In this document: positions 2,072 through 58,277 of the stretch, one piece after another | Numbering within the stretch: the first letter of the stretch is position 1 | How the letters are laid out: each line of letters starts with the position of its first letter | Origin: Myxococcota bacterium | GTDB taxonomy: Bacteria; Myxococcota_A; UBA796; CAJQPC01 | Assembly (NCBI GenBank): GCA_036012755.1 | Contig: DASCPX010000016.1 | Coordinates: 32,001 to 96,000, forward strand | Length of the DNA stretch: 64,000 nucleotides | Direction: 5' to 3' | The notes under the pieces: model-generated | Told to the model about the DNA's origin: nothing | Databases searched by the model: none | The model's input: only the letters and a program-made list of their open reading frames with translations | Position numbers and translations under genes: made by a program

Positions 2072-2869
2072 ATGCTCGCGCTGCTGTCGTCCTGCTCCAT
2101 GCCCTTCGGCGGGCCCGAGGGCGCGACCCCCGGACAGGGAGACTGCGACGAGCTCGTGGTCGGCTGGCTCGACGAGGACGGAGACGGCTTCGGTCGCGAG
2201 CAGGAAGAGGCGTGCGAGGCCCAGTGGTACTGGGTGGACGCCGGCGGGGACTGCAATGACGAGGACCCCCTCATACACCCCGACGCCCTGGAGATCTGCG
2301 AGCCGTGGTCCCGCGGCGTGGACGAAGACTGCGACGGCACCCTGGACTGCGAGGACGCAGACTGCCGCGACGAGTGCCTCGAGGACGACTGCAACGACGG
2401 CTACGACCAGGACGACGACGGGCTGACCGACTGCGAGGACGACGACTGCCTGGGCACGGCCGACTGCGCCTCCTTCACCGCGTACATCACGGGCGGCGGC
2501 GCCTACACCCTGTCCCGCTACGCGGTCAGCCAGCAGCTCTGGGCGACCTCTGTGAAGGGCCACGTCATCTTCACAGAGGGCATCGTCGGCAGCTGCACCT
2601 TCACCCTCGGCCGGGTGGAGATCTGGACCTCCTACGGCATCACCACCGACGTGCGTCGCGAGGACATCTGGCCCAGCGACGGCTGCCCTTCGTCGCTGTC
2701 GACGGGTTTCCTACCCCGCACCTCGGAGCTCACCTTCTCAGGCTCTCGCATGCCCCGGCTGAACACCGGCGCCCCCTGGTACGGCTCCACCCTGACCAGC
2801 AGCAGCTGGGGCAGCTCGTCCACGTTCTACCGTGGCGCGATCACGGGCGGATCGACCTTCTCGAGGTAG
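2072..2869 (+). CDS. Putative lipoprotein with MopE-like/Cys-Asp-rich metal-binding motifs
   Basis: Starts MLALLSSC; carries WLDEDGDGFG...DCNDEDPLIHPDALEIC...GVDEDCDG and DQDDDGLTDCEDDDC repeats. Confidence 0.75.
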   Translation: MLALLSSCSMPFGGPEGATPGQGDCDELVVGWLDEDGDGFGREQEEACEAQWYWVDAGGDCNDEDPLIHPDALEICEPWSRGVDEDCDGTLDCEDADCRDECLEDDCNDGYDQDDDGLTDCEDDDCLGTADCASFTAYITGGGAYTLSRYAVSQQLWATSVKGHVIFTEGIVGSCTFTLGRVEIWTSYGITTDVRREDIWPSDGCPSSLSTGFLPRTSELTFSGSRMPRLNTGAPWYGSTLTSSSWGSSSTFYRGAITGGSTFSR

Positions 2870-2872
2870 CCT

Positions 2873-3568
2873 GTGGATATGTTGATCACCCTGTGGATCA
2901 CTGCTTGTTCGACTGATCAGAGTCCGCCTCCGACGCGGATTCTGATCGAGGCGCCGGATCCGGTCGTCGTGCAGCTCGAGGTGCCCCCGGAGCCCGTGGC
3001 GAACACGCCGCCGGAGGGCTGGACAGAGCTGGTCGGCGCCCCCTCGCTGGACTTCGCCTTCGACTACCACGGCACGGACAACTTCACCGGCGCCCAGCTC
3101 CCTGGCTACGAGGCGAAGGGCGCCTGGCTCCGGGACGAGGCGGCGGCGGCGCTCCTGTTGGCGGCGGCCGACCTCGACGCGCAGGGCCTCCGACTCGTCG
3201 TGCGTGACGCCTACCGGCCGGTCCGGGCGACCCTGGCGATGTGCGACTGGGCGGAGCGCACCGACCAGGTCCACCTCCTCGACGATGGCTACATCGCTCG
3301 GAAGTCAGGCCACAACCACGGCAACACCATCGACGTGAGCCTGAGCCGAGATGGGGTCGCGCTCGATTTCGGCAGCCCCTACGACCACTTCGGCGTCGAG
3401 TCCCACACCGCCAACGCCTCGGACGGGGCCGCAGAGGCCCGCGTCCTGCTCGGTGGGGCCATGTCGAAGCACGGCTGGAAGAACTACTCCAAGGAGTGGT
3501 GGCACTTCTCCTACTCGATGCAGGGCACCGAGCCCCTCGACGTGCCCTACGGGGTGTCGGGGGACTGA
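2873..3568 (+). CDS. D-alanyl-D-alanine dipeptidase (VanX/DdpX, peptidase M15D), putative lipoprotein
   Basis: DAYRP, SGHNHGNTIDV (SxHxxGxxxD) and EWWHF motifs; alternative ATG at 2879 gives MLITLWITAC. Confidence 0.9.
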   Translation: MDMLITLWITACSTDQSPPPTRILIEAPDPVVVQLEVPPEPVANTPPEGWTELVGAPSLDFAFDYHGTDNFTGAQLPGYEAKGAWLRDEAAAALLLAAADLDAQGLRLVVRDAYRPVRATLAMCDWAERTDQVHLLDDGYIARKSGHNHGNTIDVSLSRDGVALDFGSPYDHFGVESHTANASDGAAEARVLLGGAMSKHGWKNYSKEWWHFSYSMQGTEPLDVPYGVSGD

Positions 3569-3582
3569 GGTAGGGTCGCGCC

Positions 3583-4344
3583 GTGCTGCGACGTCTTCCG
3601 TTTTCGATCCGAGTAGGACTTCGCAGGGTCCCCGCCACGCTGAGATGGCTGGGCCGACCTCGTCTTGCTCGGGGCGACATCACCGACTTCCCGGCGCTAC
3701 ATGCCAGGCGCCGGAGCCCCCTCCGCCGCCAGTCCACGCTCTACGCAGGGGGCCTCCAGGCCGCCAAGGAACACAACGTGCGGCGAGCCGCGGCCTTGAT
3801 GGACGGAGTCGTCATCGACCCCGGCCAGAGCCTCTCCTGGCACGCCGTCATCGGCCCGCCGATCCGCGCTCGGGGCTTCGTCCCCGGCCCCGAGCTCCAC
3901 GCCGACCGCCTCGCCCAAGGAGGAGGTGGTGGGCTCTGCCAGGTTGCGAACCTCGCAGCCTGGCTGGCGGTGCATGCTGGACTCGAGCTCCCCGTGCGCC
4001 ACCGCCACGGCCTCGACCTGTTCCCAGACGAGGCCCGGACCGTGCCCTTCGGTCTGGGCGCGACCGTCTTCTTCCCGACCCGCGACCTGGTCATGAAGAA
4101 CCCGCACGAAGTGCCCCTGCGTCTGGGCTTCGGCGTCGAAGATGGCTTCCTGCTCGGCGAGCTCCGCTTCACGGAGCCCCTGGACGAGCGCTTTGTCGTC
4201 GAGGAGCGTGACGCCGGCTTCGAGCGCATCGATGGCGTCGTCTACCGCTTCAACCGCCTGGTCCGTGTGAGCGCGCACGGCGAGGAGCTGCTCTGGTCGA
4301 CCCGCGCCCGGGTCGCCTACTCCGTCTCCGAGGAGCTGCTGTGA
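3583..4344 (+). CDS. VanW family protein
   Basis: KEHNV..AA..MDGVVIDPGQSLS, GGGLCQVAN, RHRH and GATVFFP..DL..KN motifs. Confidence 0.85.
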   Translation: MLRRLPFSIRVGLRRVPATLRWLGRPRLARGDITDFPALHARRRSPLRRQSTLYAGGLQAAKEHNVRRAAALMDGVVIDPGQSLSWHAVIGPPIRARGFVPGPELHADRLAQGGGGGLCQVANLAAWLAVHAGLELPVRHRHGLDLFPDEARTVPFGLGATVFFPTRDLVMKNPHEVPLRLGFGVEDGFLLGELRFTEPLDERFVVEERDAGFERIDGVVYRFNRLVRVSAHGEELLWSTRARVAYSVSEELL

Positions 4345-5744
4345 TCCTGCTCTTGGCCTGTTCCGGAAACCCCGAACCCCAGAAGGTCGAGGAGAAGCCT
4401 GCCCTCGAGGTCCTCGCCGAGGCTCCGGACAAGGCGTCCACCAAAGTGGACTTCCACCTGGAGGCGGCCGTCCTGACATCCGAGGGACTAGCAGATGGCC
4501 TGCTGCGCGGGAACGACGCCTGGGTGCCCATCGGCAATCCCAACGGCGAAGGCCTGCTGTTGCGCTTCGCCGAGCCCTTCTACTTCAGCAAGCTCGAGGT
4601 CAGCGCCTGCTCCACCGGCCCCGCCTGGACCCCGACTGTCTTCGTGAACGGAGCCCGGGTCGACGACCGACGCCTGGAGCCCGGGGGGACCAAGGCCGTG
4701 CAGGTCGGCGAGGTCGTGAAGTCCGTCTTCGTGCGCATGAGCCACGCCGAGCCGGGGGCCTGCATGGGCGGTGTGCGCTTCCTGGACTCCAAGGGCGAAG
4801 ACCTGAACGTGCTGCCACCCCGCCACGTCGGGGCCGAGGTCCGGGCCAGCTCCACCCTGGAGCCCGCCGACGCCTACCACACGCTCTACCTCGTCGACAG
4901 CCGCACGGACTTCGGCTGGGTGGAGGGCGCCAAGGGCACCGGCGCGGGCGAGAGCCTGAGCATCACCCTGGACGAGGAGGTGGAGCTCCACGGCGTCCGG
5001 CTCTGGAACGGCTACCAGCGCAGCGAGGACCACTTCAAGAAGAACGCGCGCCTGAAGAAGGTGACCCTGTCCTTCGACACCGGGTCGGTGACCCTGGAGG
5101 TGCCGGACGCCATGGGGCCCTCCGAGCTGTCCTTCGATCCGGTCAAGACGCGCAGCCTGAAGCTGACCATCGACGAGGTCACCCCGGGCAGCCGCTACGA
5201 GGACCTCGTGATCTCCGAGCTGGAGCTGATCGACGAGGACGGCCCCCTCAGCCTCAGGACCTGGGACGACCGGGCCAAGGCCCTGCGCACCGCCCACGCT
5301 GGCACCGCGCTGGGGGCCCTGATGGACCAGCAGCTCGAGAGCGTCTGCAGCGACGAGTGGATCACCCAGGCCAAGCTGCGCAGCAACCACAGCTTCGTGG
5401 TCTACGGCGAGAGCATGGACACCTCGACCGTCTTCGACGGTGCCTGGGTCCCGCTGGGCAAGGAGGGGGCCTGGACCGCGGTCAAGCTCTACGGCCGACG
5501 CCACCGCATCCGCTCGACCTACCAGCCCTACGGCACCGACACGACGGACGAGGAGACCCGGATCGGCGGCGGCAAGCTGCTCCTGGCGCGAGCCTCCGAC
5601 CTCGACGAGGAGACCTGGATCGTCACCTCCGCCGAGCTGGCCTGGGGCCTGACCTGCTCGCCGAACCTGAGCCACGCAGAGGCCATCGAGATGGGCATCG
5701 TGCTCATGAAGGGGGCGGACATCGACGCGGTCGTCGCCTTCTGA
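4341..5744 (+). CDS. Lipoprotein with discoidin-like (F5/8-type, NADase glycan-binding-like) domains and an unknown C-terminal domain
   Basis: Starts MILLLAC; ASSTL...WVEG..GTGAGESL...LWNGYQRS..F.KNAR.K....TIDEV.PG.RY.DL.ISE pattern. Confidence 0.7.
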   Translation: MILLLACSGNPEPQKVEEKPALEVLAEAPDKASTKVDFHLEAAVLTSEGLADGLLRGNDAWVPIGNPNGEGLLLRFAEPFYFSKLEVSACSTGPAWTPTVFVNGARVDDRRLEPGGTKAVQVGEVVKSVFVRMSHAEPGACMGGVRFLDSKGEDLNVLPPRHVGAEVRASSTLEPADAYHTLYLVDSRTDFGWVEGAKGTGAGESLSITLDEEVELHGVRLWNGYQRSEDHFKKNARLKKVTLSFDTGSVTLEVPDAMGPSELSFDPVKTRSLKLTIDEVTPGSRYEDLVISELELIDEDGPLSLRTWDDRAKALRTAHAGTALGALMDQQLESVCSDEWITQAKLRSNHSFVVYGESMDTSTVFDGAWVPLGKEGAWTAVKLYGRRHRIRSTYQPYGTDTTDEETRIGGGKLLLARASDLDEETWIVTSAELAWGLTCSPNLSHAEAIEMGIVLMKGADIDAVVAF

Positions 5745-6222
5745 TGCTCCTGATGCTCGGGTGTGGCATGGAGCCAGCGCCGCAGCCGCCTCCGCCCCGG
5801 CTGCAGTCGATCCTCACGTCCAGCATCGGCCCAAACCCCTTCGACGCCACCGCCGGGATCGGGCCGATGGCGTCACCCAGACCCAGATCAAGCTCCGCTC
5901 CAACCAGACCTTCGACATCGTCGGCGAGGACCTCGTGGCGCACGGCGACTGGTTCCCGTCGGCGGCCTTCCGCGGCTGGACGAAGGTGACGCTCCATGGA
6001 ACGAGAACCCAGGGCGGCGAGACCACGGTCCTCGACAGCGAAAGCCTCACCCTGGCGACAGCCTCCGAGCTCGACGCTGCAGGCTGGATCGACACCGCCC
6101 GGCGCTACACCTCGGCGCTGGACTGCGAGGGCCAGATGAGCCACGAGCAGGCGGCCAGCGAGGGCATCGTGATGGTCGAGGGCGCAATAGAGGCCGTGGT
6201 CCGCCTCAACGCCGCCGAGTGA
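5744..6222 (+). pseudogene. Small lipoprotein paralogous to the C-terminal domain of the upstream gene, with a frameshift near 5850-5870
   Basis: ATG at 5744 overlaps the upstream TGA (MLLMLGC). The conserved part TQIKLRSNQTF...IEAVV lies in a different frame (5761..6222 ORF). Confidence 0.65.
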
Positions 6223-7489: not shown

Positions 7490-8506
7490 TCAGTCGCGCA
7501 GGTGGCGGTTCAGGTACTCGAAGTCGGTGGTGTCCCCAGAGATGTGCACGTCCGAGGACCAGCTCTGGCCGTAGTGGCCGAAGTCGTCCAGCAGCCCGAG
7601 CCCATCCGACTCCAGCCGCGCCATCCCGCCCTGCTGCCGCACGACCCAGAGCTGCTCGTCATCGGCCGCGACGTTGGTCAGGTACTCGTCCATCGTGGTG
7701 GAGTCGACCAACCCCCCGGCGTCGAACTGGTAGAGCGAGGCCCCGTGCTTGTTCGCGAGGTAGACGTGGTCCCGATCCGAGGCCAGGGACCTGGGGCGGC
7801 TGGACGCGGCGTGGGTGTCGGTGACGCCGAAGGTGGACAGGTCGACCTGGAAGAGCAGGTCCTCGTTGGTGACCGCCACCCAGCGCGTGCTCCCCTCGAC
7901 GTGCACCGCCTGCGGGTAGTGCGCCATCGTGGTGTTGCCGGTGTAGACGTCCGGGTAGCCCTCGAAGGTGAGCGAGGCGACCTCCTCGAGGGTGGCCCGG
8001 TCCAAGACAGCGACACGACCTTCGTAGGGGTAGCTCGAGCCCAGGTCGAAGAGCGCCGCGTAGACGTGGTCCTCGTCTAGATCGAGGTCCAGCACCTGCA
8101 CATCGACGAGCGAGGTCATCTCGACCACCGAGCCGGTCTTGTCGAGCACGTAGAGGGTCTGGTCGTCGTTGGAGGCGACGAAGACCTCCTCGTCGTCCAG
8201 GGCGATGGCCAGGTGCGCGCTGCCGAGCTCGATCTCCTCGACCTCGAGCAGGAGCAGGTCGGCGTCGCCGCCGTTGTAGACCACGAGCGACTTGTCCTGG
8301 GCAGGGCACACATCGGCGAGGCTCGGCCAGCCATAGGAGCGCGGCGTGAGCACGATGTCGGGCTCGAGCACCGGCGCTTCGCTGTCCACGGGAGAGTCGG
8401 CGGGGGAGTCCACCGGGCTGTCCTCGACCTCCGAGTCATGGGTCGAGGGCTGCGACTCTCGAGGAACGACCTGGTTCTCCGTGCACGCGACGAGCAGCAG
8501 CAGCAT
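7490..8506 (-). CDS. Putative lipoprotein with an acidic linker and beta-propeller-like repeats
   Basis: Starts MLLLLVAC; DSP-repeat linker; repeated D..VYxA / LYxLD blades. Confidence 0.6.
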   Translation of the reverse strand: MLLLLVACTENQVVPRESQPSTHDSEVEDSPVDSPADSPVDSEAPVLEPDIVLTPRSYGWPSLADVCPAQDKSLVVYNGGDADLLLLEVEEIELGSAHLAIALDDEEVFVASNDDQTLYVLDKTGSVVEMTSLVDVQVLDLDLDEDHVYAALFDLGSSYPYEGRVAVLDRATLEEVASLTFEGYPDVYTGNTTMAHYPQAVHVEGSTRWVAVTNEDLLFQVDLSTFGVTDTHAASSRPRSLASDRDHVYLANKHGASLYQFDAGGLVDSTTMDEYLTNVAADDEQLWVVRQQGGMARLESDGLGLLDDFGHYGQSWSSDVHISGDTTDFEYLNRHLRD

Positions 8507-8548: not shown

Positions 8549-9214
8549 GTGGTCTGGCTCATCTCATGCATCAGCGGCGAAGAGGTCGTCGTCGGTCCGG
8601 GCCTCGATCAGACAGACGACAGCTCGGTGATCGAGGGGCCGTGCGCTGACGACATGGTCGAGGTCGAGGACTTCTGCATCGACCGCTACGAGGCCTTCGT
8701 CACCGACGGGGTCGCCGAAAACGGCGAGGGCGAGACCCCCACCGGCTACCACTCGGGAGAGCAGGCCGAGCTGTACTGCGAAGCCGCCGACAAGCGCCTC
8801 TGCACAAGCGAGGAGTGGCTGCACGCCTGTCAGGGGGAGCCGCCGACCACCTGGCCATACGGCGACACCTACGATCCGACGGCCTGCAACGACAGCTACC
8901 CGGGAGGTCACCCGGTGGTGGACTACTTCGGCACCTCCGACGGGACCTGGAACACGGAGCACATGAACGATCCCGGCATCAACGAGCAGCCGGACACGGT
9001 CGATCCCAGCGGGGAAAACCTGTCCTGCGTCAGCATCGATGGGGTCTACGACCTTCACGGCAACCTCCACGAATGGGTCGCCGAGAGCGTGTTCCGGGGC
9101 GGGTTCTACGCGGACGCGGAGCTCAACGGACCCGGTTGCACCTAAGTCACGACCGCCCACGCAACGAGCTACCACGACTACTCGACGGGCTTCCGCTGCT
9201 GCGCGGACCCCTGA
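8549..9214 (+). pseudogene. FGE/SUMF1-family domain protein interrupted by an in-frame TAA at 9143-9145
   Basis: GGAGG then GTG at 8549; FCIDRYEA, KRLCTSEEW..AC and GVYDLHGNLHEW motifs; the same frame continues VTTAH...STGFRCC to TGA at 9212-9214. Confidence 0.8.
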
Positions 9215-9260: not shown

Positions 9261-10295
9261 GTGATCCTGCTTCTGTCCGCCGAGGCCTTTGCCTGCGGCG
9301 CCTTCTTCGGCCCGGAACCCGTCATCTCGGACAGCCAGGTCGTAGCCTTCCGTCCGGGCTCCGGGTCCACAGAGGTCGAGTACCGCGTGGCCTACGCGGG
9401 CGACGCAGAGGACTTCGGCTGGGTCATCCCGGTGCCCGGTGACGTCGAAGAGGTCGAAGAGGGTGACCCCGACGCCCTCATGGACGCCGTCCAGGACAGC
9501 GAGCCGAGCATCGAGCACTACTACGACGAGCCCCGCTTCGGCTGCAGCGGAAAGGGGGACGACCTCACCGACTCGAGTGGCGGCATGGGGACCGACTCCG
9601 GCCTCGTCGAGGGCAGCGGGAGCGCGGGGATCTTCGAGTGGACCGCGCTCTCCGGCGAGGAGTCCGAGCCCCTGATCTCCTGGCTCGACGAGCGCGGCTT
9701 CGTCAACGGCGACACCAGCGCCATCGAGGACTACGTCGCAGAGGGCGGCTGGACCTTCATCGCCTTGTCGATGACCCAGACCCCGGACGGCGCCGGCGAC
9801 AGCGGCTGGGGCCACACCATGCCCCAGGCCGCGGTGCGCATCACCTACGCGGGTGACGACATCAGGTACCCGGCGCACATGACCAGCACCTCTGGCGCCG
9901 AGAGGCAGACCACCACCATCCTGGTCTTCGGTGATGAGCGCGCGACCGTCAGCGGCTGGTCCTCGGCAAAGGTCGGCGACCTCTTCGGCGACATCGACGA
10001 CGACCCGGCCGAGCTCTACGCGGACCGCCTCTGGGACCTCGGAGGCGACTCCCCCGGCTACGGTCTCGTCTACGCGCAGGCCTACCGCGGCGAGTGGCTC
10101 ACCCGCTTCGACGCCATGGCCCTGTCCACAGCCCACACAGAAGACGCCGTCTTTGCAATCGACGGGGGCACCGACCCGGTCTCGAGCTCGATCCAGCTCT
10201 ACGAGAAAGAGAGGGACCGTGACAAAGCCGAGAACGCCTTGTTCCTCCTGCCCCTGGGCCTGCTCGGACTGATCGGGCTGCGCCGTCGGCAATAG
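9261..10295 (+). CDS. DUF2330 domain-containing protein with a C-terminal TM anchor and RRR tail
   Basis: GGAGG then GTG at 9261; ACGAFF, YAGDAEDFGWVIPVP, WLDERGF and YP..M motifs; ends LLPLGLLGLIGLRRRQ. Confidence 0.75.
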   Translation: MILLLSAEAFACGAFFGPEPVISDSQVVAFRPGSGSTEVEYRVAYAGDAEDFGWVIPVPGDVEEVEEGDPDALMDAVQDSEPSIEHYYDEPRFGCSGKGDDLTDSSGGMGTDSGLVEGSGSAGIFEWTALSGEESEPLISWLDERGFVNGDTSAIEDYVAEGGWTFIALSMTQTPDGAGDSGWGHTMPQAAVRITYAGDDIRYPAHMTSTSGAERQTTTILVFGDERATVSGWSSAKVGDLFGDIDDDPAELYADRLWDLGGDSPGYGLVYAQAYRGEWLTRFDAMALSTAHTEDAVFAIDGGTDPVSSSIQLYEKERDRDKAENALFLLPLGLLGLIGLRRRQ

Positions 10296-12472: not shown

Positions 12473-13459
12473 CTATTCGAAGCCCTTCCTGCACGCCGCG
12501 TCGCAGCGGTGGGCGAGGCCGATCGCACCGGCGGCGAGATTGGTGGGGAGCCCGGTCTCGACAGTCGAGGGCAACAGCGACAGGGTCGGCTCGTAGTGCG
12601 CCGCGTGGCAGAGCCCCGCGACCTCGGCGGCGTCGACACCGACGCTGACCTTCAAGGTCCGGCTCGAGCCGGCACACCGAGAGGTCGTCTGGAAGCTCAG
12701 GTTCCGTCCCGGCGTGGCGCAGGTCAGCTTGGCGTACTCCGCGGCGAGGCTGTCCTCGACCAGCTCGATGGTGGGCAGGGGCGTCGAGTCCTGGGCCTCG
12801 ATCGCGGCGAGCACGGAGCCGAGGGTCTCCCGAGAGTGCCCGGCGACCTTCGCTCTCAGAGCGTCCTCTCGGGCCTCGTAGAGGGACACGCCACCGCCGA
12901 CCCAGCCCTCTTCGTGCACGCAGATGAAGCGCGGAGCGGTAGGGATCTCCTCCGTCAGGGGTCGCAGCGCAGGGGTGGGCGCCGTGGCCTTCTTCGAGAG
13001 GCAGACCTGGAGCGCATCCCGGGCCTCGGGGAGCCCCTTGCCCACCGCCACCTGGTAGTCCCCGAAGCACTTGCGCCTGCGAGCGGCCTCGAGCGCCACC
13101 CAGGGAAGGTCCGCGGTCACGTAGCCGTCGCCCCAGGTCGCGTCCCAGTCTCCGCTGTGGCGCTTGACCTGGACGAACTCACAGGCCCCTGGGCGGACCT
13201 CGTAGCCGGGCACCCGCGGCACATCGGGGGGCTCGATCGAGGCATAGCGCGCGACGAGCACCTCGACCTCGCCGAGGTAGATATCGACGTGCTGATCGAT
13301 GTCGGCGACCAGCCAGGCGTGCTCGATCACCCGAAGGGATCCGCTCTCGAAGTCAGCGGCAAAGGCCTGCACGGTGAGCGTCTCGTCGGGCGTCTTCAAG
13401 GTCGCCGTGCACCGGGCGATGCCGTCGCTGGCGAGAGCGGCCGCGATGAACAACATCAT
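12473..13459 (-). CDS. Hypothetical secreted Cys-containing protein
   Basis: GGAGG before ATG at 13459 (MMLFIAAALAS); multiple cysteines. Confidence 0.6.
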   Translation of the reverse strand: MMLFIAAALASDGIARCTATLKTPDETLTVQAFAADFESGSLRVIEHAWLVADIDQHVDIYLGEVEVLVARYASIEPPDVPRVPGYEVRPGACEFVQVKRHSGDWDATWGDGYVTADLPWVALEAARRRKCFGDYQVAVGKGLPEARDALQVCLSKKATAPTPALRPLTEEIPTAPRFICVHEEGWVGGGVSLYEAREDALRAKVAGHSRETLGSVLAAIEAQDSTPLPTIELVEDSLAAEYAKLTCATPGRNLSFQTTSRCAGSSRTLKVSVGVDAAEVAGLCHAAHYEPTLSLLPSTVETGLPTNLAAGAIGLAHRCDAACRKGFE

Positions 13460-17990: not shown

Positions 17991-18350
17991 GTGACCGTCT
18001 TGTTCATGCTTGCCGCATGTGAGCACACGACGCCTGAAGACCCCGCCGGAAGCACCGAGCAGTCTCGCGCAGAGGCCATGCCCCACTGCAACGGAATAGT
18101 GCACGACGACACGTTCTACACGGACTGCGTCATCCGGGGCATCGTCGCGGCCCCGGACAGGGACAGCGCAGAGGAGCTCTGCTCTTCCCTGCCTCTCCGT
18201 CAGTCCGAGTGTCGCTCCCAGTGGGCCATGCGCATGATGAACCGGGCCGACGCAGAGGACGTCCGGATCATGTGCGGCGAGGACGGCGAGTGCCTGGCGG
18301 AGCTCGAAGAGGTGATCGCCTGGCGAGCCAAGGTGCAGCCCCCGGGCTGA
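17991..18350 (+). CDS. Small Cys-rich putative lipoprotein
   Basis: GGAG then GTG at 17991 (MTVLFMLAAC); 6 further cysteines. Confidence 0.55.
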   Translation: MTVLFMLAACEHTTPEDPAGSTEQSRAEAMPHCNGIVHDDTFYTDCVIRGIVAAPDRDSAEELCSSLPLRQSECRSQWAMRMMNRADAEDVRIMCGEDGECLAELEEVIAWRAKVQPPG

Positions 18351-18366: not shown

Positions 18367-19188
18367 TCAGTTCGTGACTGGCGGCTCGAAGAGGTAGAGC
18401 GCCAGGGGCTGATCGCCGGTGGCTTCGATCACCACGGGCGCGGGACGCAGGAAGACCAGCAGCGTGCCCGGCGTGATCGCGCGCTCGGTCCCGGCGCCGC
18501 GCAGCATGCCCTCTCCGGAGACGGCATAGAGCAGCCCATGGTCCTCTGAGGTGGCGGGCAGCTCGTACTGCTCGCCCACGAACAGCCGAGACATACGCCC
18601 TTCCATGATCGGCAGATCGAGGCGGTCGAAGGGCTGCCCGGAGGCGACGAAGTCCTCGACGTCGTCGTCGGGGTGGTAGCTGAAGGGTGCGGTGCCCTGG
18701 TCCATGCGCGGGTCGTCCGGCCGCAGGTACAGGTTGCCGTCGAAGGAGGGGTAGGCCAGCACGAGGTTGGCCTGGTGAGCTCCGGTGTTGTTGTCCCACT
18801 CGTGGCCGGTGAAGGGGGGCGAAGAGACCAGCGAGCCCGGCCCGAACTGCTCTTGGGTCTCCACGCGCTCCCCCTCTTCGGCGTAGACGTGAGCGACGTC
18901 CGGCGAGCCCGTGACGATGATGGTCGCCTCGTTGGCGGTGCGGTGGACGTGCAGCGGACAGAGCTGATCGACGCCGATGACGTGCATGTGCGCGGAGGCG
19001 ACCTCGGTCGTGTAGAAGGTCTCCGACCGGTCGGTGGAGTCGAAGTGGGCCTGGATGATCTCCTCGGCCTTGTCCGGGAGGTTGGTGCTGGCGAGGGCGA
19101 GGCCGCTGGGAGGCACCTCGACGACCAAGGGCGTGACGGCTTCCTCCTGGGCGCACGCCGCCAGGGCCCACAGCGCAAGTCCCGTCAC
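18367..19188 (-). CDS. Cupin-domain putative lipoprotein (bicupin-like)
   Basis: PLHVHRTANE...PPFTGHEW cupin motif; second degenerate barrel. Confidence 0.75.
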   Translation of the reverse strand: MTGLALWALAACAQEEAVTPLVVEVPPSGLALASTNLPDKAEEIIQAHFDSTDRSETFYTTEVASAHMHVIGVDQLCPLHVHRTANEATIIVTGSPDVAHVYAEEGERVETQEQFGPGSLVSSPPFTGHEWDNNTGAHQANLVLAYPSFDGNLYLRPDDPRMDQGTAPFSYHPDDDVEDFVASGQPFDRLDLPIMEGRMSRLFVGEQYELPATSEDHGLLYAVSGEGMLRGAGTERAITPGTLLVFLRPAPVVIEATGDQPLALYLFEPPVTN

Positions 19189-27246: not shown

Positions 27247-27286
27247 GAGCTTAGCCGCCCCACGAGCAGGCCCCATCTCTCGTGGC

Positions 27287-42054: not shown

Positions 42055-42701
42055 GGGCAGGCGCCCCCTGGCAGGAGCCCGGCCTCGCCTTGCTCGATCC
42101 ACCAGGTCCCCGGCTGGGAGTACTCCCCCGCGTAGGGATCGAAGGTCACGCCGTCGTGCTCCACCTGCAGGTGGAGGTGAGGCGTCGAGCTGTGACCGCT
42201 GGAGCCGACCAGCGCCAGCTCCTGGCCACAGCTCACCTCCTCGCCGACGACGACGAGCAAGCTGTCCTTCTTGAGGTGCCAGTAGCGGGTGCGATTGCCC
42301 CCTTCGTGCTCGAGGATCACGTGGTTCGCGACGCCGCTGTGGCCATCACAGTCCACCTCCCCGCCGAGGTCGCCGTGGCAGCGGTCGTAGTGGCCGTCCT
42401 CGACCGACACGACCACGCCGTCCGCCGCCGCGATCACCAGCGTCGAGCCCGCGTCCATCGTGTCGAAGCCGCCCTCGAGCAGGTAGTCCGAGCCCTCGTG
42501 CTCGTCGTAGCAGGCGGGGAAGTGGCGCCCGTCGTAGGCCGTGCAGATCAGCTGCTCGGCGCCCTCGTAGACCGCTGGATCGTGGTCCACGCCGACGGTC
42601 TCGCTGATCAGCTCCGGCTCGGCCAGGGGCAAGGCCAGCTGAAGCGCGGCCCGGGGCACGCCCGAGTCCAGCGGAGGCGTCGTGCAGGCCAACCAGAACA
42701 T
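42051..42701 (-). CDS. M23 family metallopeptidase, putative lipoprotein
   Basis: HEGSD, AAADGVV, YWHL and GSSGHSSTPHLH motifs; starts MFWLAC. Confidence 0.9.
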   Translation of the reverse strand: MFWLACTTPPLDSGVPRAALQLALPLAEPELISETVGVDHDPAVYEGAEQLICTAYDGRHFPACYDEHEGSDYLLEGGFDTMDAGSTLVIAAADGVVVSVEDGHYDRCHGDLGGEVDCDGHSGVANHVILEHEGGNRTRYWHLKKDSLLVVVGEEVSCGQELALVGSSGHSSTPHLHLQVEHDGVTFDPYAGEYSQPGTWWIEQGEAGLLPGGACP

Positions 42702-43927: not shown

Positions 43928-43970
43928 GGCGCCGGGGTATAGCACAGGCCGGTTCTGTTGAGGATGACCA

Positions 43971-46334
43971 ATGCTGCTCCTGCTGCTCAGCTGTACGATG
44001 ATGACCCTCATGACCCAGGGGCGCAGCCTCCCCGAGCTGGACGGCCGTCTCGAGGCTCCTGGGCTCGCCGGAGACGCCCGGATCATCCGTGACGAGCGCG
44101 GCATCCCCCACATACGCGCGAACAGCGAGGCGGACGCTGCCTTCGCCGTCGGCTACGCCCACGCCCAGGACCGCCTCTTCCAGATGGACCTCGCCCGCCG
44201 CCTGGCCTACGGAGAGATGTCCGAGCTCCTCGGCGCCGACATGGTGGAGCTGGACATCTTCATGAGGAGCCTCGGCCTCAGGGAGCACGCCACCGGATCA
44301 CTCAAGTCGCTGGACCCGGACGCCCGCTTCGTGCTCGCGGCCTACGCCGCCGGTGTCAACGCCGGACGTGACGCGGCGAAGGTCCCCCCCATCGAGCATC
44401 GCCTCCTCAAGGAGCGCAGGGTGGCCGAGTGGACGCCGATCGACTCGATGGCGATCGCCTACCTCAACTCCTGGTGGCTCTCCCGGAACCCGGAAGAGGA
44501 ACTCTTCGCCTGGCTCCACCGCAAGGAGCTCTCTCGAGAAGACCTCGACGCGCTCTTCCGCTTGCAGCCCGAGACCCCGAAGGCCGACCCATACTGGGAG
44601 GGCCTGCGAAAGGTCCGGGCAGGGGACTTCACGGAGCCCTTCGACACCTTCCTCGAGATGATGACCGGCTACGGCGTGCCCGCCGCGTCGAACAACTGGG
44701 CCGTCTCCGGCGAGCGCAGCGCGGACGGCATGCCCATCCTCGCCAACGACCCGCACCTGTCGCGCTCGGTGCCCGCGACCTGGTACATCCTCGACGCAAA
44801 GGGTGGCGCCTGGCACGCTGCGGGCGGCACGGTGCCGGGCCTGCCCTGGGTGGTCGTCGGTCACAACGAGACCATGGCCTGGGGCGCCACGAACACGATG
44901 GCCGACTACGTCGACTTCGTCGTCCTCGAGCGCGAGGGCCAGATGGAGTACTACCTGGCGGGAGAGAAGAAGCGGCTCCACGAAGAGACCGTCGAGATCG
45001 TCGTGAAGGACGAGGAGCTCCCTCGCACGGCCACCGTCTACCTCACAGATGTCGGCCCGGTCGTCACCGAGCTCGCCGGCACGCACATCCTGGCGATGCG
45101 CTGGAGCGCGCTGCAGAGCGTCGACCTCTCTCCCCAGTTCATCCGCAGCCTCAACCTCGCCCCGAGCGTCGCCGCAGCCCGCGAGATCGACCACACGGCC
45201 TCGTCGACCTCGTTGAACCTGGTCCTCGCGGACGACCAGGGCGACATCGGCTGGCAGGTCACCGGGCTCGTGCCCAAGCGCATGGCCCACACCGGGCGCC
45301 TGCCATACCCGGGCAGCTCCGAGCACCACGGCTGGGAGGGCTTCTGGGATGAGCTCCCGGGCGAGCTCAACCCGGAGCGAGGCTACGTCGCCACCGCCAA
45401 CGACTACCCCTCGGAGTACCTCCCGCTGGAGTCCGAGGAGACCGACGCGACAGAGGACGACGAGGGGGACCCGCGGCAGCTCGCCACACCCGACGAGGTG
45501 AGCAGCAGCTACATCCTGCCCTGGCGGATCGACCGCATCCGCGAGCTGCTCGAGGCCACCGAAAAGCACACGGTCCAGACCTTCCAGTCCCTGCAGATGG
45601 ACAAGCGCGACAACCACGCCGCCGCCCTGGTCCCGGAGCTCCTCGGCGACATCGACACCAAGACGGAGGGCGGGGCCTGGGTCCAGGAGCAGCTGTTGGC
45701 CTGGGACTTCGTGGCGATGCCGCGGGGCTCGGAGGAGCTGCTGTGGGCCGAGTTCAACAAGCAGCTCGTGCGCTACGCCCTGGAGGACACCCTGTCTCCA
45801 GAGGGCATCGAGGACTACATGTGGGCCGCCACGGTCGGGGGCTCCGTGATCGAGGTCGAGGGAGGCCTGGCCCACTTCGTCGAGGACACGGACATGGCCC
45901 GCCGCGCGGCGCTGTTGGAGACCCACAAGGCGCTCACCGCGAGGCTCGGCGAGAGCACCTCGAACTGGCGCTGGGAGAACGTGCACCCGCTGCACTTCGA
46001 TCACCCCTTCCAGGCCTCTGGCGCGCCCTCGACCTTCAGCGCCGGCACCGTGGACGACCACGGCTCCTCTCCCGCGGCGGTCAACCCGGGGGGCTACTCC
46101 TGGTCCAAGGAGAGCTACGAGACGACCTGGATCGCCAGCATGCGCCTGGTCGTGCCGCTCTCCGACGTCGGGCAGGCGATGGTCGTCCTCCCTCCAGGCC
46201 AGTCCGGACAGCCCGGCAGCGACCACTACCAGGACCAGCTGCGCTTCTGGAAGAAGGGGGAGCTGTTGCCCCTGTGGTTCCATGACGCCGACGTCGAGCG
46301 TGAAGCCGCACACACCCTGGAGCTGACGCCATGA
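43971..46334 (+). CDS. Penicillin acylase family Ntn-hydrolase (AHL-acylase-like)
   Basis: RDERGIPHI, GYAHAQDRLFQMD, SNNW (beta-subunit Ser), ANDPHL and GQSG.P.S.HY.DQ motifs. Confidence 0.93.
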   Translation: MLLLLLSCTMMTLMTQGRSLPELDGRLEAPGLAGDARIIRDERGIPHIRANSEADAAFAVGYAHAQDRLFQMDLARRLAYGEMSELLGADMVELDIFMRSLGLREHATGSLKSLDPDARFVLAAYAAGVNAGRDAAKVPPIEHRLLKERRVAEWTPIDSMAIAYLNSWWLSRNPEEELFAWLHRKELSREDLDALFRLQPETPKADPYWEGLRKVRAGDFTEPFDTFLEMMTGYGVPAASNNWAVSGERSADGMPILANDPHLSRSVPATWYILDAKGGAWHAAGGTVPGLPWVVVGHNETMAWGATNTMADYVDFVVLEREGQMEYYLAGEKKRLHEETVEIVVKDEELPRTATVYLTDVGPVVTELAGTHILAMRWSALQSVDLSPQFIRSLNLAPSVAAAREIDHTASSTSLNLVLADDQGDIGWQVTGLVPKRMAHTGRLPYPGSSEHHGWEGFWDELPGELNPERGYVATANDYPSEYLPLESEETDATEDDEGDPRQLATPDEVSSSYILPWRIDRIRELLEATEKHTVQTFQSLQMDKRDNHAAALVPELLGDIDTKTEGGAWVQEQLLAWDFVAMPRGSEELLWAEFNKQLVRYALEDTLSPEGIEDYMWAATVGGSVIEVEGGLAHFVEDTDMARRAALLETHKALTARLGESTSNWRWENVHPLHFDHPFQASGAPSTFSAGTVDDHGSSPAAVNPGGYSWSKESYETTWIASMRLVVPLSDVGQAMVVLPPGQSGQPGSDHYQDQLRFWKKGELLPLWFHDADVEREAAHTLELTP

Positions 46335-51622: not shown

Positions 51623-51628
51623 GCCCCG

Positions 51629-53500: not shown

Positions 53501-53507
53501 GAGCCCG

Positions 53508-54434
53508 ATGCTCCTGTTGATCGCCTGCACCAAGACCCCGGAGCCTGGCGACAGCTCCGCCGATCTGCCCGATCCGGTGGGCGATCCCGACACCGTCGAG
53601 CTCCTCGGCATGTGTCCCCTGGCCGATCACCTCGGGGGCTTCATCGTCGAGGTCGCTCCCGACACCTCCATCGTCGACGGCCGCGTCCGGGACGGGGTCG
53701 TGCCGATCACCGTACTCACAGAGGTGACGAGGCTCGACGAGTGCGCTCTGTTGCGCCGGGAGAACCCCTACTGCGACCCGGACTGCGAGATCGACGAGGC
53801 CTGCGACCTCGACGAGACCTGCATCCCCTACCCCTCTGACGTGGACCTGGGCACGGTCACCCTCGCTGGCCTCGAAGAAGACCTGCGCATGGAGCCGGTC
53901 ACCCCCGGCTTCCGCTACTTCGACACCTCCCTGTCCCACCCGGCCCTGGCCGGCGGAGAGCTCCTGGAGCTCCACGCCTACGGGGCGCTGGACGAGGTGG
54001 TGCTCCACGGGGTCGGCCCGACACCCCTGGTGGCCGAGCTGGAAGAAGACCTCGTCGTCGTCGAAGGCAGCGCCCTGAGCTTGTCCTGGGAGGGGGACCC
54101 TGGGGGCCGCAGCAGCCTGGCGCTCCAGCTGTCGATCGACCAGCACGGCTCCTCGCCCCTGCGCATCGTCTGCGAGCTGGAGGACGACGGCGCCGGAGAG
54201 GTCCCCGTCGAGCTCGTCGAGGCGCTGCTCGGCGGAGGCGTGACCGGCTACCCCAACGCCACCCTCACCCGCCACACGGCGGACCTCGCAGAGATCGACG
54301 GCGGCTGCGTGGACCTCGAGGTCTCGAGCCCCCTGCCGGTGGGCGTGCGGGTCGAGGGCTACATCCCCTGCACCGACGAGGACGACTGTCCGCCCACCAT
54401 GGACTGCAACACGGAGATCGAGCTTTGTCAGTGA
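53508..54434 (+). CDS. Cys-rich hypothetical lipoprotein
   Basis: Starts MLLLIAC; P.CDP.C...E.C.....C and C-terminal C..D.DCP....C......C motifs. Confidence 0.72.
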   Translation: MLLLIACTKTPEPGDSSADLPDPVGDPDTVELLGMCPLADHLGGFIVEVAPDTSIVDGRVRDGVVPITVLTEVTRLDECALLRRENPYCDPDCEIDEACDLDETCIPYPSDVDLGTVTLAGLEEDLRMEPVTPGFRYFDTSLSHPALAGGELLELHAYGALDEVVLHGVGPTPLVAELEEDLVVVEGSALSLSWEGDPGGRSSLALQLSIDQHGSSPLRIVCELEDDGAGEVPVELVEALLGGGVTGYPNATLTRHTADLAEIDGGCVDLEVSSPLPVGVRVEGYIPCTDEDDCPPTMDCNTEIELCQ

Positions 54435-55846
54435 TCCTCTGGCTCGCCTGCACAGGCAACACCGTGCCCGGAGTCGGCGACTCCAGCGAGAGCGCGCTAC
54501 CCGACAGCGGCGACAGCGGTGACTCGGCGGAGCCCATCGATGTCTGCGAGTCCCTCCCCGAAGGCCCCTACGACGAGCGCCAGCTCAGCGGCTTCACCAA
54601 CTCAGAGGACTTCGCCTTCGGCAACGACGGCCGCATGTACTCGGTGAACTGGAACGGCCACCTCGTCTGGCACACCTACGACGGCGACAGCGACACGGTG
54701 CTCCCCCGCCTCGGCGAGGCCGCCGGCATGGAGATGATGGCTGACGGCTCGCTGGTCATAGCCAACGTCTCCGACGGCACGGTCATCCGGGTGGACACAG
54801 AGGACGGGAGCTCCGAGACCCTGATGTCCGGCATCCCCTACCCCAACGGCATCACCATCGACCAGGACGGCGTGGTCTACGTGAGCGAGCACACCCGCGG
54901 GAACGTGCGGCGCTACGACCCGGAGACCGGCGAGTCCGAGCTCATCGCGCGCGGGCTCTACAACCCCAACGGCATGGCCTTCTCTCCCGACTGGCAGACC
55001 CTCTACGTCAACAGCTTCGGGGGCGGCACGGTCCACGCGATCCGACGTGACGGCGAGGGCTTCGCCGAGCCCGAGCTCTTCGGCTCCGTCCTCGAACAGA
55101 ACAGCGAGGTCTGCGAGGACCGCGACGACGGCGAGGTCTGCGTGGAGGACTACCTCATCGGCGCCTGCGAGGCCGGCCTGTGCGCCACGGAGAGCGACAC
55201 CGACGCCTGCGACGCGCTGGCCGAGGGAGACCCCTGCGTCACCACCCGCGCAGGGGAGTCCTTCGAGTCCATCTGCACCACCACCACAGAGGGCAGCCTC
55301 ACCTGTCCCCAGGTGGACGAGGCCCACCTCGCGGGCTGCATGGGCAAGTCCGTCGACGAGAGCTGCAAGGTCACCGACGGCGGCAACGGCTACTGCTACG
55401 AGACCGGGGACGACGTGCTGTCCTGCCTCGACTACGACGAGTGGGAGCACGACGCCATCGAGGCCTGCCAGGGCCAGTCCTCCGGCGAGCCCTGCCAGGT
55501 CTTCACCCAGGGCTACCCCTACGAAGGAGAGTGCGTCGACTACGGCGTCAACTACTGCCTCGGCGAGGGCTACGGCTCCGGGGGCCTCGACGGCCTCGAC
55601 GTCGACGAGTGCGGAAACGTCTATGTCACCGAGTACATCAAGGGCATCGTGTGGCGCATGGACAGCGAGACCGGCGAAGCCGAGAACATCCTGGAGCTGG
55701 ACTCGAGCTGGATCCCCAACCTCCACTGGGGCAGCGGCGTGGGAGGATGGGAAGAGGACATCCTCTACGTCATGGATCGCGACACAAATGGCATCTACGC
55801 AGTCGAGATCGGCTTGAAGGGCCGCCCCACCGCGGTGCGCCCATGA
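54431..55846 (+). CDS. SMP-30/gluconolactonase-like beta-propeller lipoprotein with a Cys-rich insertion
   Basis: SEDFAF, PNGI, PNGMAFSPD..TLYV, LDGL.VDECGNVYV and PNLHWG motifs. Confidence 0.82.
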   Translation: MILWLACTGNTVPGVGDSSESALPDSGDSGDSAEPIDVCESLPEGPYDERQLSGFTNSEDFAFGNDGRMYSVNWNGHLVWHTYDGDSDTVLPRLGEAAGMEMMADGSLVIANVSDGTVIRVDTEDGSSETLMSGIPYPNGITIDQDGVVYVSEHTRGNVRRYDPETGESELIARGLYNPNGMAFSPDWQTLYVNSFGGGTVHAIRRDGEGFAEPELFGSVLEQNSEVCEDRDDGEVCVEDYLIGACEAGLCATESDTDACDALAEGDPCVTTRAGESFESICTTTTEGSLTCPQVDEAHLAGCMGKSVDESCKVTDGGNGYCYETGDDVLSCLDYDEWEHDAIEACQGQSSGEPCQVFTQGYPYEGECVDYGVNYCLGEGYGSGGLDGLDVDECGNVYVTEYIKGIVWRMDSETGEAENILELDSSWIPNLHWGSGVGGWEEDILYVMDRDTNGIYAVEIGLKGRPTAVRP

Positions 55847-57789
55847 TCCTCTGGGCGCTGGTGTCCTGCAACGGCGAGATGCCGGACGAGGGCTGGGAGT
55901 GCATCCACAGCGGTGACGAGCGCCCGGCGTTCCTTCAGCAGCTGGGCTGCGAGGCGGACTTCGACGCCCTCGCCGCCGCCCCGCTCGACGCCTCGATCCC
56001 GGGAGCCCGGAGCACCAAGACCGTCGTCGATCGGGCAGACGACGACTCGCTCTACTTCCAGGACTCGGAGCGCTACCAGATCCACTGGGAGTTCGCCTTC
56101 GAGCACCTCTCCGGGGACGGGCTGCCCATCGTCGACGAGCTCGGGGCCTTCAACGAGACCGAGTACACCTCGCCAGAGCGCCGCTTCGTGCTCGGAGCCC
56201 TGACCATCTACGAGGAGCCGAACGTGTGGGCGTGGGAGGTCAGCCCCTACGACACGGCCACGGCGGACATGATCACGCTGGCCTACCGCAAGATCCGCGA
56301 CAACAGCTGGATCGGAGAGGAGCTCTACTTCCACCCGACCAGCGAGAGCGTCGCAGAGGTGGCAGAGGACCTGCCCTCCGACGTGAAGGTCATCACCACC
56401 GAAGAGCTCTTCGCGGGCATCACCTACCAGCCCCTGAACCTCGGCACCTCGATGGGCAAGTTGCGCTTCTACGAGGACCCGGAGGAGGAGATCCCGAACT
56501 TCCGCGAGATCGTCGTGCTGCCCGCGGTCCCCAACGACATGCCCGTGGTGATGGGCATCGTCACCGACGCCTTCCAGACACCGCTTGCCCACATCAACGT
56601 CCTGTCCCAGAACCGCGGCACGCCCAACATGGCGCTCATCGGCGCCTGGCAGCACCCGGAGCTCCGCGCGCTGGAGGACCTCTGGGTCGAGCTCACGGTC
56701 GAGGCCCACGACTGGTCCGTCCGCGAGGTCACCCAGGAAGAGGCCGACGCCTGGTGGGAGGGCTTCCGTCCGGAGCCCCTCGACGTGACGTCGATGGACC
56801 TCTCGATCCAGGAGATCCTGCCCATCGAAGAGGTGGTGGACCTGGAGCTGGGCCTCGTGCCAGCGCTGGACGCCGCCGTGCCGGCCTTCGGGGGAAAGGC
56901 GAGCCACTTCGCGGTGATGTCCCACTCCCCAGATGCCATCCCGATGCCGACAGCCTCTGCGATGCCGGTCTACTTCTACGACCGCTTCATGGAGGAAAAT
57001 GGCTTCTGGGACGAGGTCGACGAGATGATGGCGGATCCCGACTTCACCGGGGACGCCCTGACCCGGGACGGACGCCTGCGACGCCTGCGCAGCGACATGC
57101 GCCGGGCCCCGATCGACGAGGAGTTCCTCGCCGAGCTCGAGGCCTACGTGAGGGAGAACCACTCCGGCCACCGGGTGCGCTTCCGGTCCTCGACCAACGC
57201 AGAGGACGTCTCTGGCTTCAACGGCGCCGGCCTCTACACCTCCCAGAGCGGTGATCCCGACGACCCGGAGCGCCCCATCGAGGACGCCCTGCGAGAGGTC
57301 TGGGCGAGCTGCTGGTCCTTCCGCGCCTACGAAGAGCGCAGCTACTACGGCATCGACCACACGGACATCGGCATGGCCGTGTTGATGCACCGCAGCTTCC
57401 CCTCAGAGGACGCCAACGGGGTCGCGATCACCGCCAACATCTTCGACACCTCCGGGCTCGAGCCCGCTTTCTACGTGAACGTGCAGTACGGGGACAACTC
57501 GGTCGTGCTGCCGGACGAGGGCGTCACGACCGACCGCTACCTCCACTACTTCGACAACGTCGGCCAGCCGGTGGTCTACCTGGGTCACAGCAACCTGGTG
57601 CCGGACGGAGAGAACGTGCTGACCGAGACCCAGATCAAGGAGCTGAGCTTCGGCCTCGACGCGATCCACGACGTCTTCTACGACGCCTACGGGCACGAAT
57701 CCTTCTACGGAATGGACGTGGAGTTCAAGTTCGACCAGGGCGATCTGTACATCAAGCAGGCGCGGCCCTACCCGGGGCGTGGCGAGTGA
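55843..57789 (+). CDS. PEP/pyruvate-binding (PPDK_N ATP-grasp) domain lipoprotein
   Basis: Starts MILWALVSC; FGGKA, RFRSSTNAED..GFNGAGLY, VWAS, MAVL and DVEF...LYIKQARP motifs. Confidence 0.88.
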   Translation: MILWALVSCNGEMPDEGWECIHSGDERPAFLQQLGCEADFDALAAAPLDASIPGARSTKTVVDRADDDSLYFQDSERYQIHWEFAFEHLSGDGLPIVDELGAFNETEYTSPERRFVLGALTIYEEPNVWAWEVSPYDTATADMITLAYRKIRDNSWIGEELYFHPTSESVAEVAEDLPSDVKVITTEELFAGITYQPLNLGTSMGKLRFYEDPEEEIPNFREIVVLPAVPNDMPVVMGIVTDAFQTPLAHINVLSQNRGTPNMALIGAWQHPELRALEDLWVELTVEAHDWSVREVTQEEADAWWEGFRPEPLDVTSMDLSIQEILPIEEVVDLELGLVPALDAAVPAFGGKASHFAVMSHSPDAIPMPTASAMPVYFYDRFMEENGFWDEVDEMMADPDFTGDALTRDGRLRRLRSDMRRAPIDEEFLAELEAYVRENHSGHRVRFRSSTNAEDVSGFNGAGLYTSQSGDPDDPERPIEDALREVWASCWSFRAYEERSYYGIDHTDIGMAVLMHRSFPSEDANGVAITANIFDTSGLEPAFYVNVQYGDNSVVLPDEGVTTDRYLHYFDNVGQPVVYLGHSNLVPDGENVLTETQIKELSFGLDAIHDVFYDAYGHESFYGMDVEFKFDQGDLYIKQARPYPGRGE

Positions 57790-58277
57790 TCTGGCTGCTG
57801 GCGTGCAACGGGGTTCCAGACGACACGGACTCCCAGGAAAGTGATCCACAGGTTGTGGACAGCTCTGTGGACCCGCCGTTTTTGGCCGATCACCTCGTGA
57901 TCAACGAGCTCGTCTCCCTGGGGACCGGGGGAGACTGGGTGGAGTTGTTCAACCCGACCAGCGAGGAGATCGATCTCTCGACCTGGGAGATCACAGACGA
58001 CGCAGAGAACGACGTGTTGGCCTGGCGCCTGCCAGAGGACATCTCCATCGCAGCGGGGGGCTACTTCCTCATCTGGTGCGACAACGGCGCGGACGGACTC
58101 CACACGGACTTCCAGCTCTCCCAGGGCGAACACATCACGATCTATTCCGAGCTGGGCCTGCGCGTAGACGAGGTAGAGGTCCCCTCGCTCATCGTCGACC
58201 AGGCAGCTGCGCGCATCCCAGACGGCTGGAGCACCTGGGAGGCCCAGGACCCCACCCCCGAAGCCAGCAACGAGTAG
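57786..58277 (+). CDS. Lamin-tail-domain (LTD) lipoprotein
   Basis: Starts MIWLLAC; LVINE, DWVELFNP....IDLS.W.ITD, H.DF.LS.GE, R.PDG and PTP..SN motifs. Confidence 0.85.
   Translation: MIWLLACNGVPDDTDSQESDPQVVDSSVDPPFLADHLVINELVSLGTGGDWVELFNPTSEEIDLSTWEITDDAENDVLAWRLPEDISIAAGGYFLIWCDNGADGLHTDFQLSQGEHITIYSELGLRVDEVEVPSLIVDQAAARIPDGWSTWEAQDPTPEASNE

Follow-up and report, generated by a model that had tools for sequence, protein, structure and literature searches.

The window considered here, a stretch of 64,000 nucleotides from a Myxococcota bacterium (GTDB lineage Bacteria; Myxococcota_A; UBA796; CAJQPC01; assembly GCA_036012755.1, contig DASCPX010000016.1, positions 32,001 to 96,000 of the forward strand), carries 18 listed genes whose products begin with a methionine, a very short hydrophobic stretch and a cysteine, like a lipoprotein signal peptide deprived of its basic n-region. 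The original prediction for this DNA held that such proteins are exported and lipidated by means of a minimal signal and through an atypical Sec/Lgt/LspA route. Our analysis shows that these leaders are genuine and occur throughout the genome, and indicates that they probably act as signal peptidase (SPase) II signals on the ordinary Sec-Lgt-LspA path.

The 18 N-termini (Table 1) translate as they had been written, seven of them from GTG codons; the cysteine stands at residue 6-12, no lysine or arginine precedes it, and the in-frame stops expected at positions 2069-2071 and 43965-43967 are both present. Overlap of the start with the preceding stop codon is equally real and occurs at six genes rather than five (4341, 5744, minus-strand 19188, 54431, 55843 and 57786). 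Alanine, glycine or serine occupies position -1 in 17 of the 18 leaders, the exception being 40896 with glutamate, and the minus-strand gene at 38951 carries a signal of canonical type, as had been noted, with its cysteine at residue 16. Pfam searches (E<=0.001) recovered most of the cargo domains named earlier, i.e., M23, LTD, sulfatase and penicillin amidase, and did not detect CAP in the product of the minus-strand gene at 27246.

The assembly around the window, labelled G000 among our genomes, comprises 6.7 Mb with 68% GC and is 96% complete. All gene counts depend on the gene set from a purpose-written dicodon-model caller (5882 genes, 91% coding). A strict pattern of methionine, about 5-7 hydrophobic residues and A/G/S-Cys was found in 944 of the 5882 genes (~16%), with ~31 expected by chance. 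A looser one, an uncharged hydrophobic N-terminus with cysteine at residue 5-13, fits 228 of the 1406 stop-coupled and 401 of the 2716 first-and-best starts, as against 371 of 68587 internal ATG/GTG/TTG codons, and the genome-wide histogram of first-cysteine positions has its maximum at residues 7-9. Canonical lipoprotein signals number about 100 in the genome and are outnumbered ~9:1 by the short ones; the 2039 starts of coupled or leaderless type include 373 short and 22 canonical lipoprotein signals. Short uncharged lipoprotein-type leaders are a genome-wide feature of about one sixth of the genes and, at ~7 residues, have about a third of the textbook length, canonical SPase II signals totalling ~15-25 residues.

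The short-leader starts are real, as stop coupling, the spacing of Shine-Dalgarno (SD) and -10 motifs, blocking stops and orthologues show. The start is coupled to a preceding stop in 199 of the 944 genes. A TANNNT box lies 6-7 nt before the start in 117 of 589 single-candidate uncoupled short-leader genes and at 1 of 589 internal control codons, and the SD motif GGAG/GAGG has its maximum at a spacer of 5-6. Together, the stop-coupled, stop-blocked and leaderless-type starts provide 473 supported leaders. The alternative that the starts are mis-called and that longer canonical signals begin upstream draws on another ATG, GTG or TTG within 20 codons upstream in 270 of the 944 genes, one of them the minus-strand gene at 27246, so single start calls may be wrong. 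As a general explanation it is rejected by the start-context statistics and the stop-blocked genes, and we hold it to be highly improbable: the 473 supported starts speak against it, the stop-blocked set already contradicts it, and the short form is kept in orthologues (e.g., those of the 4341 protein in three genomes, G062, G056 and G115). In 198 of 941 genes no more than 14 codons separate the upstream in-frame stop from the cysteine, and 132 of these 198 hold no lysine or arginine there, which makes a canonical signal impossible whatever start codon is used. Leaderless-type starts with TANNNT 6-7 nt upstream are frequent in this genome generally (211 of 1837 other genes, next to the 117 of 589 given above).

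In 378 of the 473 supported leaders the cysteine stands at residue 7-9, which leaves no h-region of the length usual in SPase II signals. Leucine occupies -2 in 315 of the 473, and L-L-A-C is the commonest lipobox (164/473). With no constraint on -1, starts fitting the pattern were found in 1084 genes, 943 of which have A, G or S at this position. The positively charged n-region is absent by definition of the class, and neither an arginine nor a twin-arginine motif precedes the cysteine.

Homology connects the short leaders to canonical lipoprotein signals. The 120 best matches of the 55843 protein, the query itself included, comprise 74 sequences with lysine or arginine before the lipobox, 41 with a short uncharged leader, 4 with a long uncharged one and 1 without a lipobox, and their cysteine positions form a continuum from 7 to ~30. 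When these homologues are classed by lysine and arginine alone, the residues LIVFMW make up 76% of positions -6 to -2 in the 45 sequences lacking both, as against 61% in the 74 with a canonical signal (p=8e-5); the genome-wide figures are 86% for short and 63% for canonical signals, a contrast partly built into the class definition. The best reading of these comparisons is that greater hydrophobicity may take the place of the n-region in short leaders. The acidic stretch behind the cysteine was considered as a specific compensation and rejected, as the net charge at +2 to +11 is the same as in canonical lipoproteins (-1.30 in 473 short and -1.53 in 100 canonical, p=0.19; equal in paired homologues). 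Since canonical lipoproteins of the same genome share it, the acidic linker is a background condition. Over the first 40 residues of the mature part, short-leader proteins carry D-S/T-G and D-A-D/D-T-D motifs at ~10-20x the density seen in proteins without a signal (examples in the window lie at 54431-54520 and 40896-40990), and these stretches may be glycosylation or surface-sorting linkers.

Exported proteins of disulfide-forming bacteria favour even cysteine counts. After subtraction of the cysteine at +1, the short-leader proteins show 517 even and 221 odd counts, as against 415 and 524 in soluble proteins without a signal (Fisher p=1.7e-26), and the bias persists once DxDGDG-repeat proteins are dropped (460 even, 199 odd). 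As indirect evidence this fits export, with an acylated Cys+1 presumably standing outside the disulfide pool. A later membrane segment occurs in only 11 of 929 short-leader proteins. The proteins could instead remain cytoplasmic, either without modification or with acylation at the membrane's inner face, a view favoured by the lack of an n-region to determine orientation; given the even-cysteine bias, the extracytoplasmic domain families and the homologues with canonical lipoprotein signals, we give it very little credence. The real starts, the canonical homologues, A/G/S at -1, the cysteine parity and the extracytoplasmic cargo are the grounds on which we infer export and lipidation, and this part of the original prediction is well supported.

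A parallel class of leaders lacks the cysteine and appears to be of SPase I type. Methionine, a hydrophobic run and an A-x-A ending at residue 9-14 were found at 130 of 2039 confident starts and at 311 of 68583 internal codons (0.45%); the uncharged candidates amount to ~367 genes, with alanine maxima at positions 9-11. These leaders of 9-14 residues have neither the basic n-region nor the ~18-30-residue length of SPase I signals. Such a leader stands three codons behind an in-frame stop in a LolA-family protein and in an OmpA-domain protein, and the window contributes three examples outside the 18 genes of the original prediction (9261, minus-strand 13459 and 25799), uncharged, 10-11 residues long and ending small-x-Ala. 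BamD (L007:1417-2163, minus strand) has a 14-residue uncharged leader without cysteine. Across 30 loci of this order and three other-order genomes (L042-L070 included), most BamD proteins are without the lipobox cysteine, which is present in G109, G046, G102 and G014. As the SPase I-type leaders are shortened too, the relaxed step is more likely to be targeting or translocation than lipidation.

The distribution of the trait was followed with a DNA pattern (Met, 5 residues and A/G-Cys), which has 53 matches in G000, 51 of them at called starts. Of 92 further genomes of the order, 25 have at least 19 matches (6/17 in f1, 16/20 in f6, 2/5 in f5 and 1/1 in f7), compared with 0-5 in 28 genomes from the remaining orders of the class and 0-10 in 203 genomes from outside the class. 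In gene-level samples of ~200 kb per genome, the short to canonical ratio was 20:3 in G000, 6:1 in G071, 4:4 in G004, 3:6 in G050, 2:8 in G010, 0:5 in G030 and 0:7 in G016, and samples of two other orders gave 0:5 and 0:4. Short leaders as a trait are restricted to a single order, where their occurrence is patchy. In a SecA tree of 31 rows (the fragments of G085 and G093 omitted) the order forms one clade, with high-trait genomes in several sub-clades among low ones, a pattern that suggests repeated expansion or loss.

G000 encodes SecY, SecA, SecD, Ffh, FtsY and YidC, as well as five Lgt, two LspA, Lnt, two LolA-family proteins and three SPase I. No atypical route of the kind postulated by the original prediction was found: the standard components are present, the copy numbers of Lgt and LspA are unrelated to the trait, and canonical signals coexist with the short ones, as in Pal, whose signal is canonical in G000 and, where the locus is Pal, in most relatives. 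Loss of the signal recognition particle (SRP) was considered and rejected, with both Ffh and FtsY in G000 and at least one SRP54-family match in 27 of 27 order genomes. A tandem operon lspA-lspA-lgt-lgt lies at L003/L005 (G000:C59:99967-102645), and three further lgt paralogues (20-37% identity) lie elsewhere in G000.

The short leaders might depend on a dedicated factor or branch, such as a specialised Lgt paralogue, a lineage-specific chaperone or YidC-type insertion, beside the canonical path of Pal. Two signal classes exist side by side (~944 short, ~100 canonical), the five Lgt paralogues have diverged to 20-41% identity, and a multi-pass membrane protein is fused to a SecDF P1 head (G000:C43:68496-69935, i.e., L296:391-1830). 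We nevertheless judge such a branch unlikely, as leader lengths are continuous within one family and the copy numbers of the candidate components are unrelated to the trait. Several Lgt copies occur class-wide (2-5 in 34 genomes of the order, 2-7 in 10 from other orders), and LspA copies number 1-3 across 32 genomes regardless of trait, with a single one in high-trait G057, G085 and G084; a dedicated LspA or Lgt was rejected on these counts. The fusion protein gave no match to the SecY profile, and its N-terminal part has matches in only 3 of 121 genomes, one of them marginal. Extra P1-head proteins are patchy across the class, and high-trait G056, G062, G115, G117 and G001 have one P1-head match each. 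A half-SecY/SecD-head fusion as the cause was rejected because extra P1-head copies are independent of the trait. A weaker P1-like protein with a single transmembrane (TM) segment was seen at C198:25042-25674 (E 0.2).

We consider it likely that the short leaders are genuine Sec/SPase II signals without an n-region, used on the ordinary Sec-Lgt-LspA path; lipidation and cleavage are what we infer from the genomic evidence. The stub rich in leucine, isoleucine, tryptophan and phenylalanine would alone suffice for targeting, most likely co-translationally via SRP or SecA; Lpp is described as using SRP and YidC (PMC8048626, section 2). The acidic early mature region, common to the canonical lipoproteins of the lineage, would permit passage through SecY in the usual orientation, and Lgt would then acylate the cysteine at the outer leaflet. 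LspA would remove the 6-8-residue stub, followed by N-acylation by Lnt. A rather different outcome, export and diacylation with the stub left uncleaved as part of the membrane anchor, might be expected, 6-8 residues being too short to span the bilayer as a helix. This outcome is improbable, however, in view of the retention of LspA, Lnt and LolA and of the A-x-A sites kept by the parallel SPase I class. Moreover, the catalytic dyad of LspA lies within the membrane and the enzyme reads lipobox residues, according to section 2.4.2 of PMC9360617, so the stub could be cut.

Alternatively, the leader could be a lipidation tag only. In this case export would rely on hitchhiking with a partner of the twin-arginine translocation (Tat) system, as is reported for the large subunit of the Desulfovibrio [NiFeSe] hydrogenase. 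The title of Valente 2007 attests in print to a bacterial lipoprotein without a typical signal. With 51 Tat-like candidates (by a rough regular expression) facing 944 short-leader genes, and with leaders that are strongly hydrophobic and homologous to Sec-type signals, hitchhiking seems barely credible here.

If the short leaders are ordinary Sec/SPase II substrates, the relaxed step was probably targeting or translocation, the SPase I signals of 9-14 residues being shortened alike. SecY has A, S or T at the position of E. coli I187, and T, A, S, G or V at that of F192, in 26 of 26 order genomes; I and F occupy these positions in E. coli and in 4 of 4 other-order genomes. We take I187 to be one of six classical pore-ring residues. 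SecA has tyrosine at the position of E. coli L372, a residue with a presumed role in signal binding, in 25 of 25 order genomes, and leucine or valine outside the order. Other order-diagnostic substitutions are E110Q, L164M and T168S/A in SecY (L106) and N369S and H/Y784R in SecA (L231). The order-wide changes in SecY (I187, F192) and SecA (L372Y) are weak candidates. In SecY TM5, I187 is replaced by A/S/T and F192 by T or some other small residue; these replacements and SecA L372Y might at most be permissive, as trait-poor members have them too. The expansion apparently took place separately in several sub-lineages. One may go further and suppose that the order rewrote its export code through a relaxed translocon (SecY I187/F192, SecA L372Y) and hydrophobicity-driven targeting, followed by independent expansions, a view that we hold as possible but rather doubtful. 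Were it true, a 6-8-residue uncharged stub would replace the tripartite signal for most lipoproteins and many SPase I substrates, and the leaders would fail in E. coli unless SecY/SecA of this lineage were supplied.

Several observations weigh against reading the leaders as genuine signals on this path. The classic [LVI][ASTVI][GAS]C consensus is present in only 86 of the 473 supported leaders. In the short SPase I class even cysteine counts do not prevail (33, against 39 odd), which deprives it of that support for export. By its title, a study of Hikita and Mizushima 1992 reportedly found loss of charge to be offset by a longer hydrophobic stretch. Regarding the translocon, the SecY/SecA changes are also present in order members G016 and G030, whose samples hold no short lipoprotein signals, and no column of the SecA alignment cleanly separates high- from low-trait genomes. 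In a set of 147 diverse SecY representatives, residue 187 is small in 28, and 5 combine both changes; the SecY I187/F192 changes as a sufficient cause were rejected on the grounds of these 28 and of the trait-poor order members. The four core ring residues that PMC11186639 gives for mammalian Sec61 correspond, by our own mapping, to E. coli 86, 191, 278 and 408 and are essentially unchanged in the order. Variants of the lipobox consensus do exist, as a part of PMC8048626 relates. Finally, in B. subtilis an h-domain of seven leucines was functional, one of five failed, and mutation of the n-domain reduced secretion (part of PMC13478843); because the 5-Leu h-domain failed, the short leaders lie below a limit that was tested.

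Table 1. Leader peptides and related features in the window (nucleotide positions within the 64,000-nt stretch).
Position	Strand	Feature	Start context
2072..2095 (gene 2072-2869)	+	8-residue leader + Cys; 265-aa protein, MopE-like Cys motif	two in-frame stops directly upstream; GGAG upstream
2879..2908 (gene to 3568)	+	10-residue leader; Peptidase_M15 (D-Ala-D-Ala dipeptidase)	in-frame stop 4 codons upstream
4341..4361 (gene to 5744)	+	7-residue leader; 467-aa protein, F5/8-type domain	GTG, stop-coupled
5744..5764 (region 5744-6222)	+	7-residue leader; frame change after ~40 codons	overlaps upstream TGA
8483..8506	-	8-residue leader; 338-aa protein without Pfam match	
8549..8569	+	7-residue leader; FGE-sulfatase-domain protein, divergent from 8506 gene	GTG
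9261..9293	+	11-residue leader ending A-F-A, then DUF2330 domain; probably SPase I type	
13430..13459	-	10-residue uncharged leader ending A-L-A; SPase I type	
17991..18020	+	10-residue leader; 119-aa Cys-containing protein	GTG
19153..19188	-	12-residue leader; cupin protein	GTG, overlaps upstream stop
20565..20585	-	7-residue leader; sulfatase	GTG; in-frame stop 7 codons upstream
25799..25828	+	10-residue uncharged leader ending V-L-A, SPase I type; TonB_2-like protein	
27217..27246	-	10-residue leader, ambiguous start	ATG at 27276, 10 codons upstream
34463..34492	+	10-residue leader; 180-aa protein	
38904..38951	-	canonical 16-residue lipoprotein signal, Arg at position 2; internal control	
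40896..40919	+	8-residue leader, Glu at -1 (deviant lipobox)	
42684..42701	-	6-residue leader; M23 peptidase	TANNNT box 7 nt upstream
43971..43994	+	8-residue leader; penicillin amidase (Ntn hydrolase)	in-frame stop 2 codons upstream
53508..53528	+	7-residue leader; first of four consecutive short-leader genes	
54431..54451	+	7-residue leader; SGL beta-propeller protein	GTG, stop-coupled
55843..55869	+	9-residue leader; PPDK_N-domain protein	stop-coupled
57786..57806	+	7-residue leader; lamin-tail-domain protein	GTG, stop-coupled

Some of these genes deserve comment. The alternative ATG of the minus-strand gene at 27246 would yield a 20-residue, canonical-looking leader with arginine and lysine, and the sole homologue found (G094, 30% identity) has a short leader. 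The box preceding the minus-strand M23 peptidase gene suggests a leaderless mRNA; an alternative ATG at 42710 likewise yields a short uncharged leader. The 40896 protein has homologues with a canonical lipobox (G001, G010) and one whose short leader has asparagine at -1 (G094). The downstream frame of the 5744 gene shares 39% identity with the C-terminus of its neighbour, the 4341 gene, and the 5744 gene is either a broken copy or an assembly error. The divergent genes at 8506 and 8549 start only 42 nt from each other, and each of them has an SD-like motif of its own. The protein encoded at 55843-57789 (PPDK_N, PEP/pyruvate-binding) is named 'pyruvate, water dikinase' in some records, and its family has a lipobox in 119 of the 120 best matches; although the enzyme family is normally cytoplasmic, this member seems to be exported, and its gene lies within a putative four-gene lipoprotein operon (53508-58277). 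No Rfam match was found within the window.

A tripartite signal with a basic n-region is regarded as almost universal. At the level of titles and abstract openings we found no published description of the trait, and supplementary secretome tables could bear on its novelty. Rule-based predictors that require an n-region would miss about one fifth of the genes (~944 lipoprotein-type and ~367 SPase I-type of 5882), and gene callers may extend the short-leader starts. The lineage supplies hundreds of natural 6-8-residue leaders, pairs with canonical homologues, and close relatives with and without the trait. Two old questions become testable, namely what the minimum signal for Sec export is, and whether Lgt and LspA need a membrane-spanning helix.

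Compared with known systems, the leaders resemble canonical Sec/SPase II signals of the E. coli Lpp type, as parts of PMC8048626 and PMC9360617 present them, in their hydrophobic run, small -1 residue and invariant cysteine; Lgt, LspA, Lnt and LolA are encoded, and homologues are canonical on the same cysteine. They differ in having no positive n-region, the cysteine mostly at 7-9 and leucine at -2 in most, and in being present in ~16% of genes. As the basic n-region is missing and the length falls short, we class them as a variant of Sec/SPase II signals, not as members. The [NiFeSe] hydrogenase is reportedly one Tat-partnered protein with a lipidated N-terminal cysteine near its start, whereas here hundreds of unrelated proteins bear a hydrophobic stub and Tat candidates are few. 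The lack of a normal signal, to which the title of Valente 2007 refers, is common to both. With canonical Sec/SPase I signals the Cys-less class shares the A-x-A ending and its position before exported families (LolA-like, OmpA-domain), but its leaders have 9-14 residues and no basic one. Engineered signals and prlA suppressors offer further precedents, among which Derman 1993 is reportedly to be counted, going by its title. The prlA suppressors (prlA4, in a portion of PMC11470409) are similar in that SecY changes can relax signal requirements, whereas the four core pore-ring residues are unchanged here. Engineered minimal Sec signals, in which seven leucines serve as the h-domain, come close as well, but they keep a basic n-domain and the shortest working one has 22 residues (in the part of PMC13478843 concerned), while the leaders described here have 6-8 residues, are natural and occur genome-wide.

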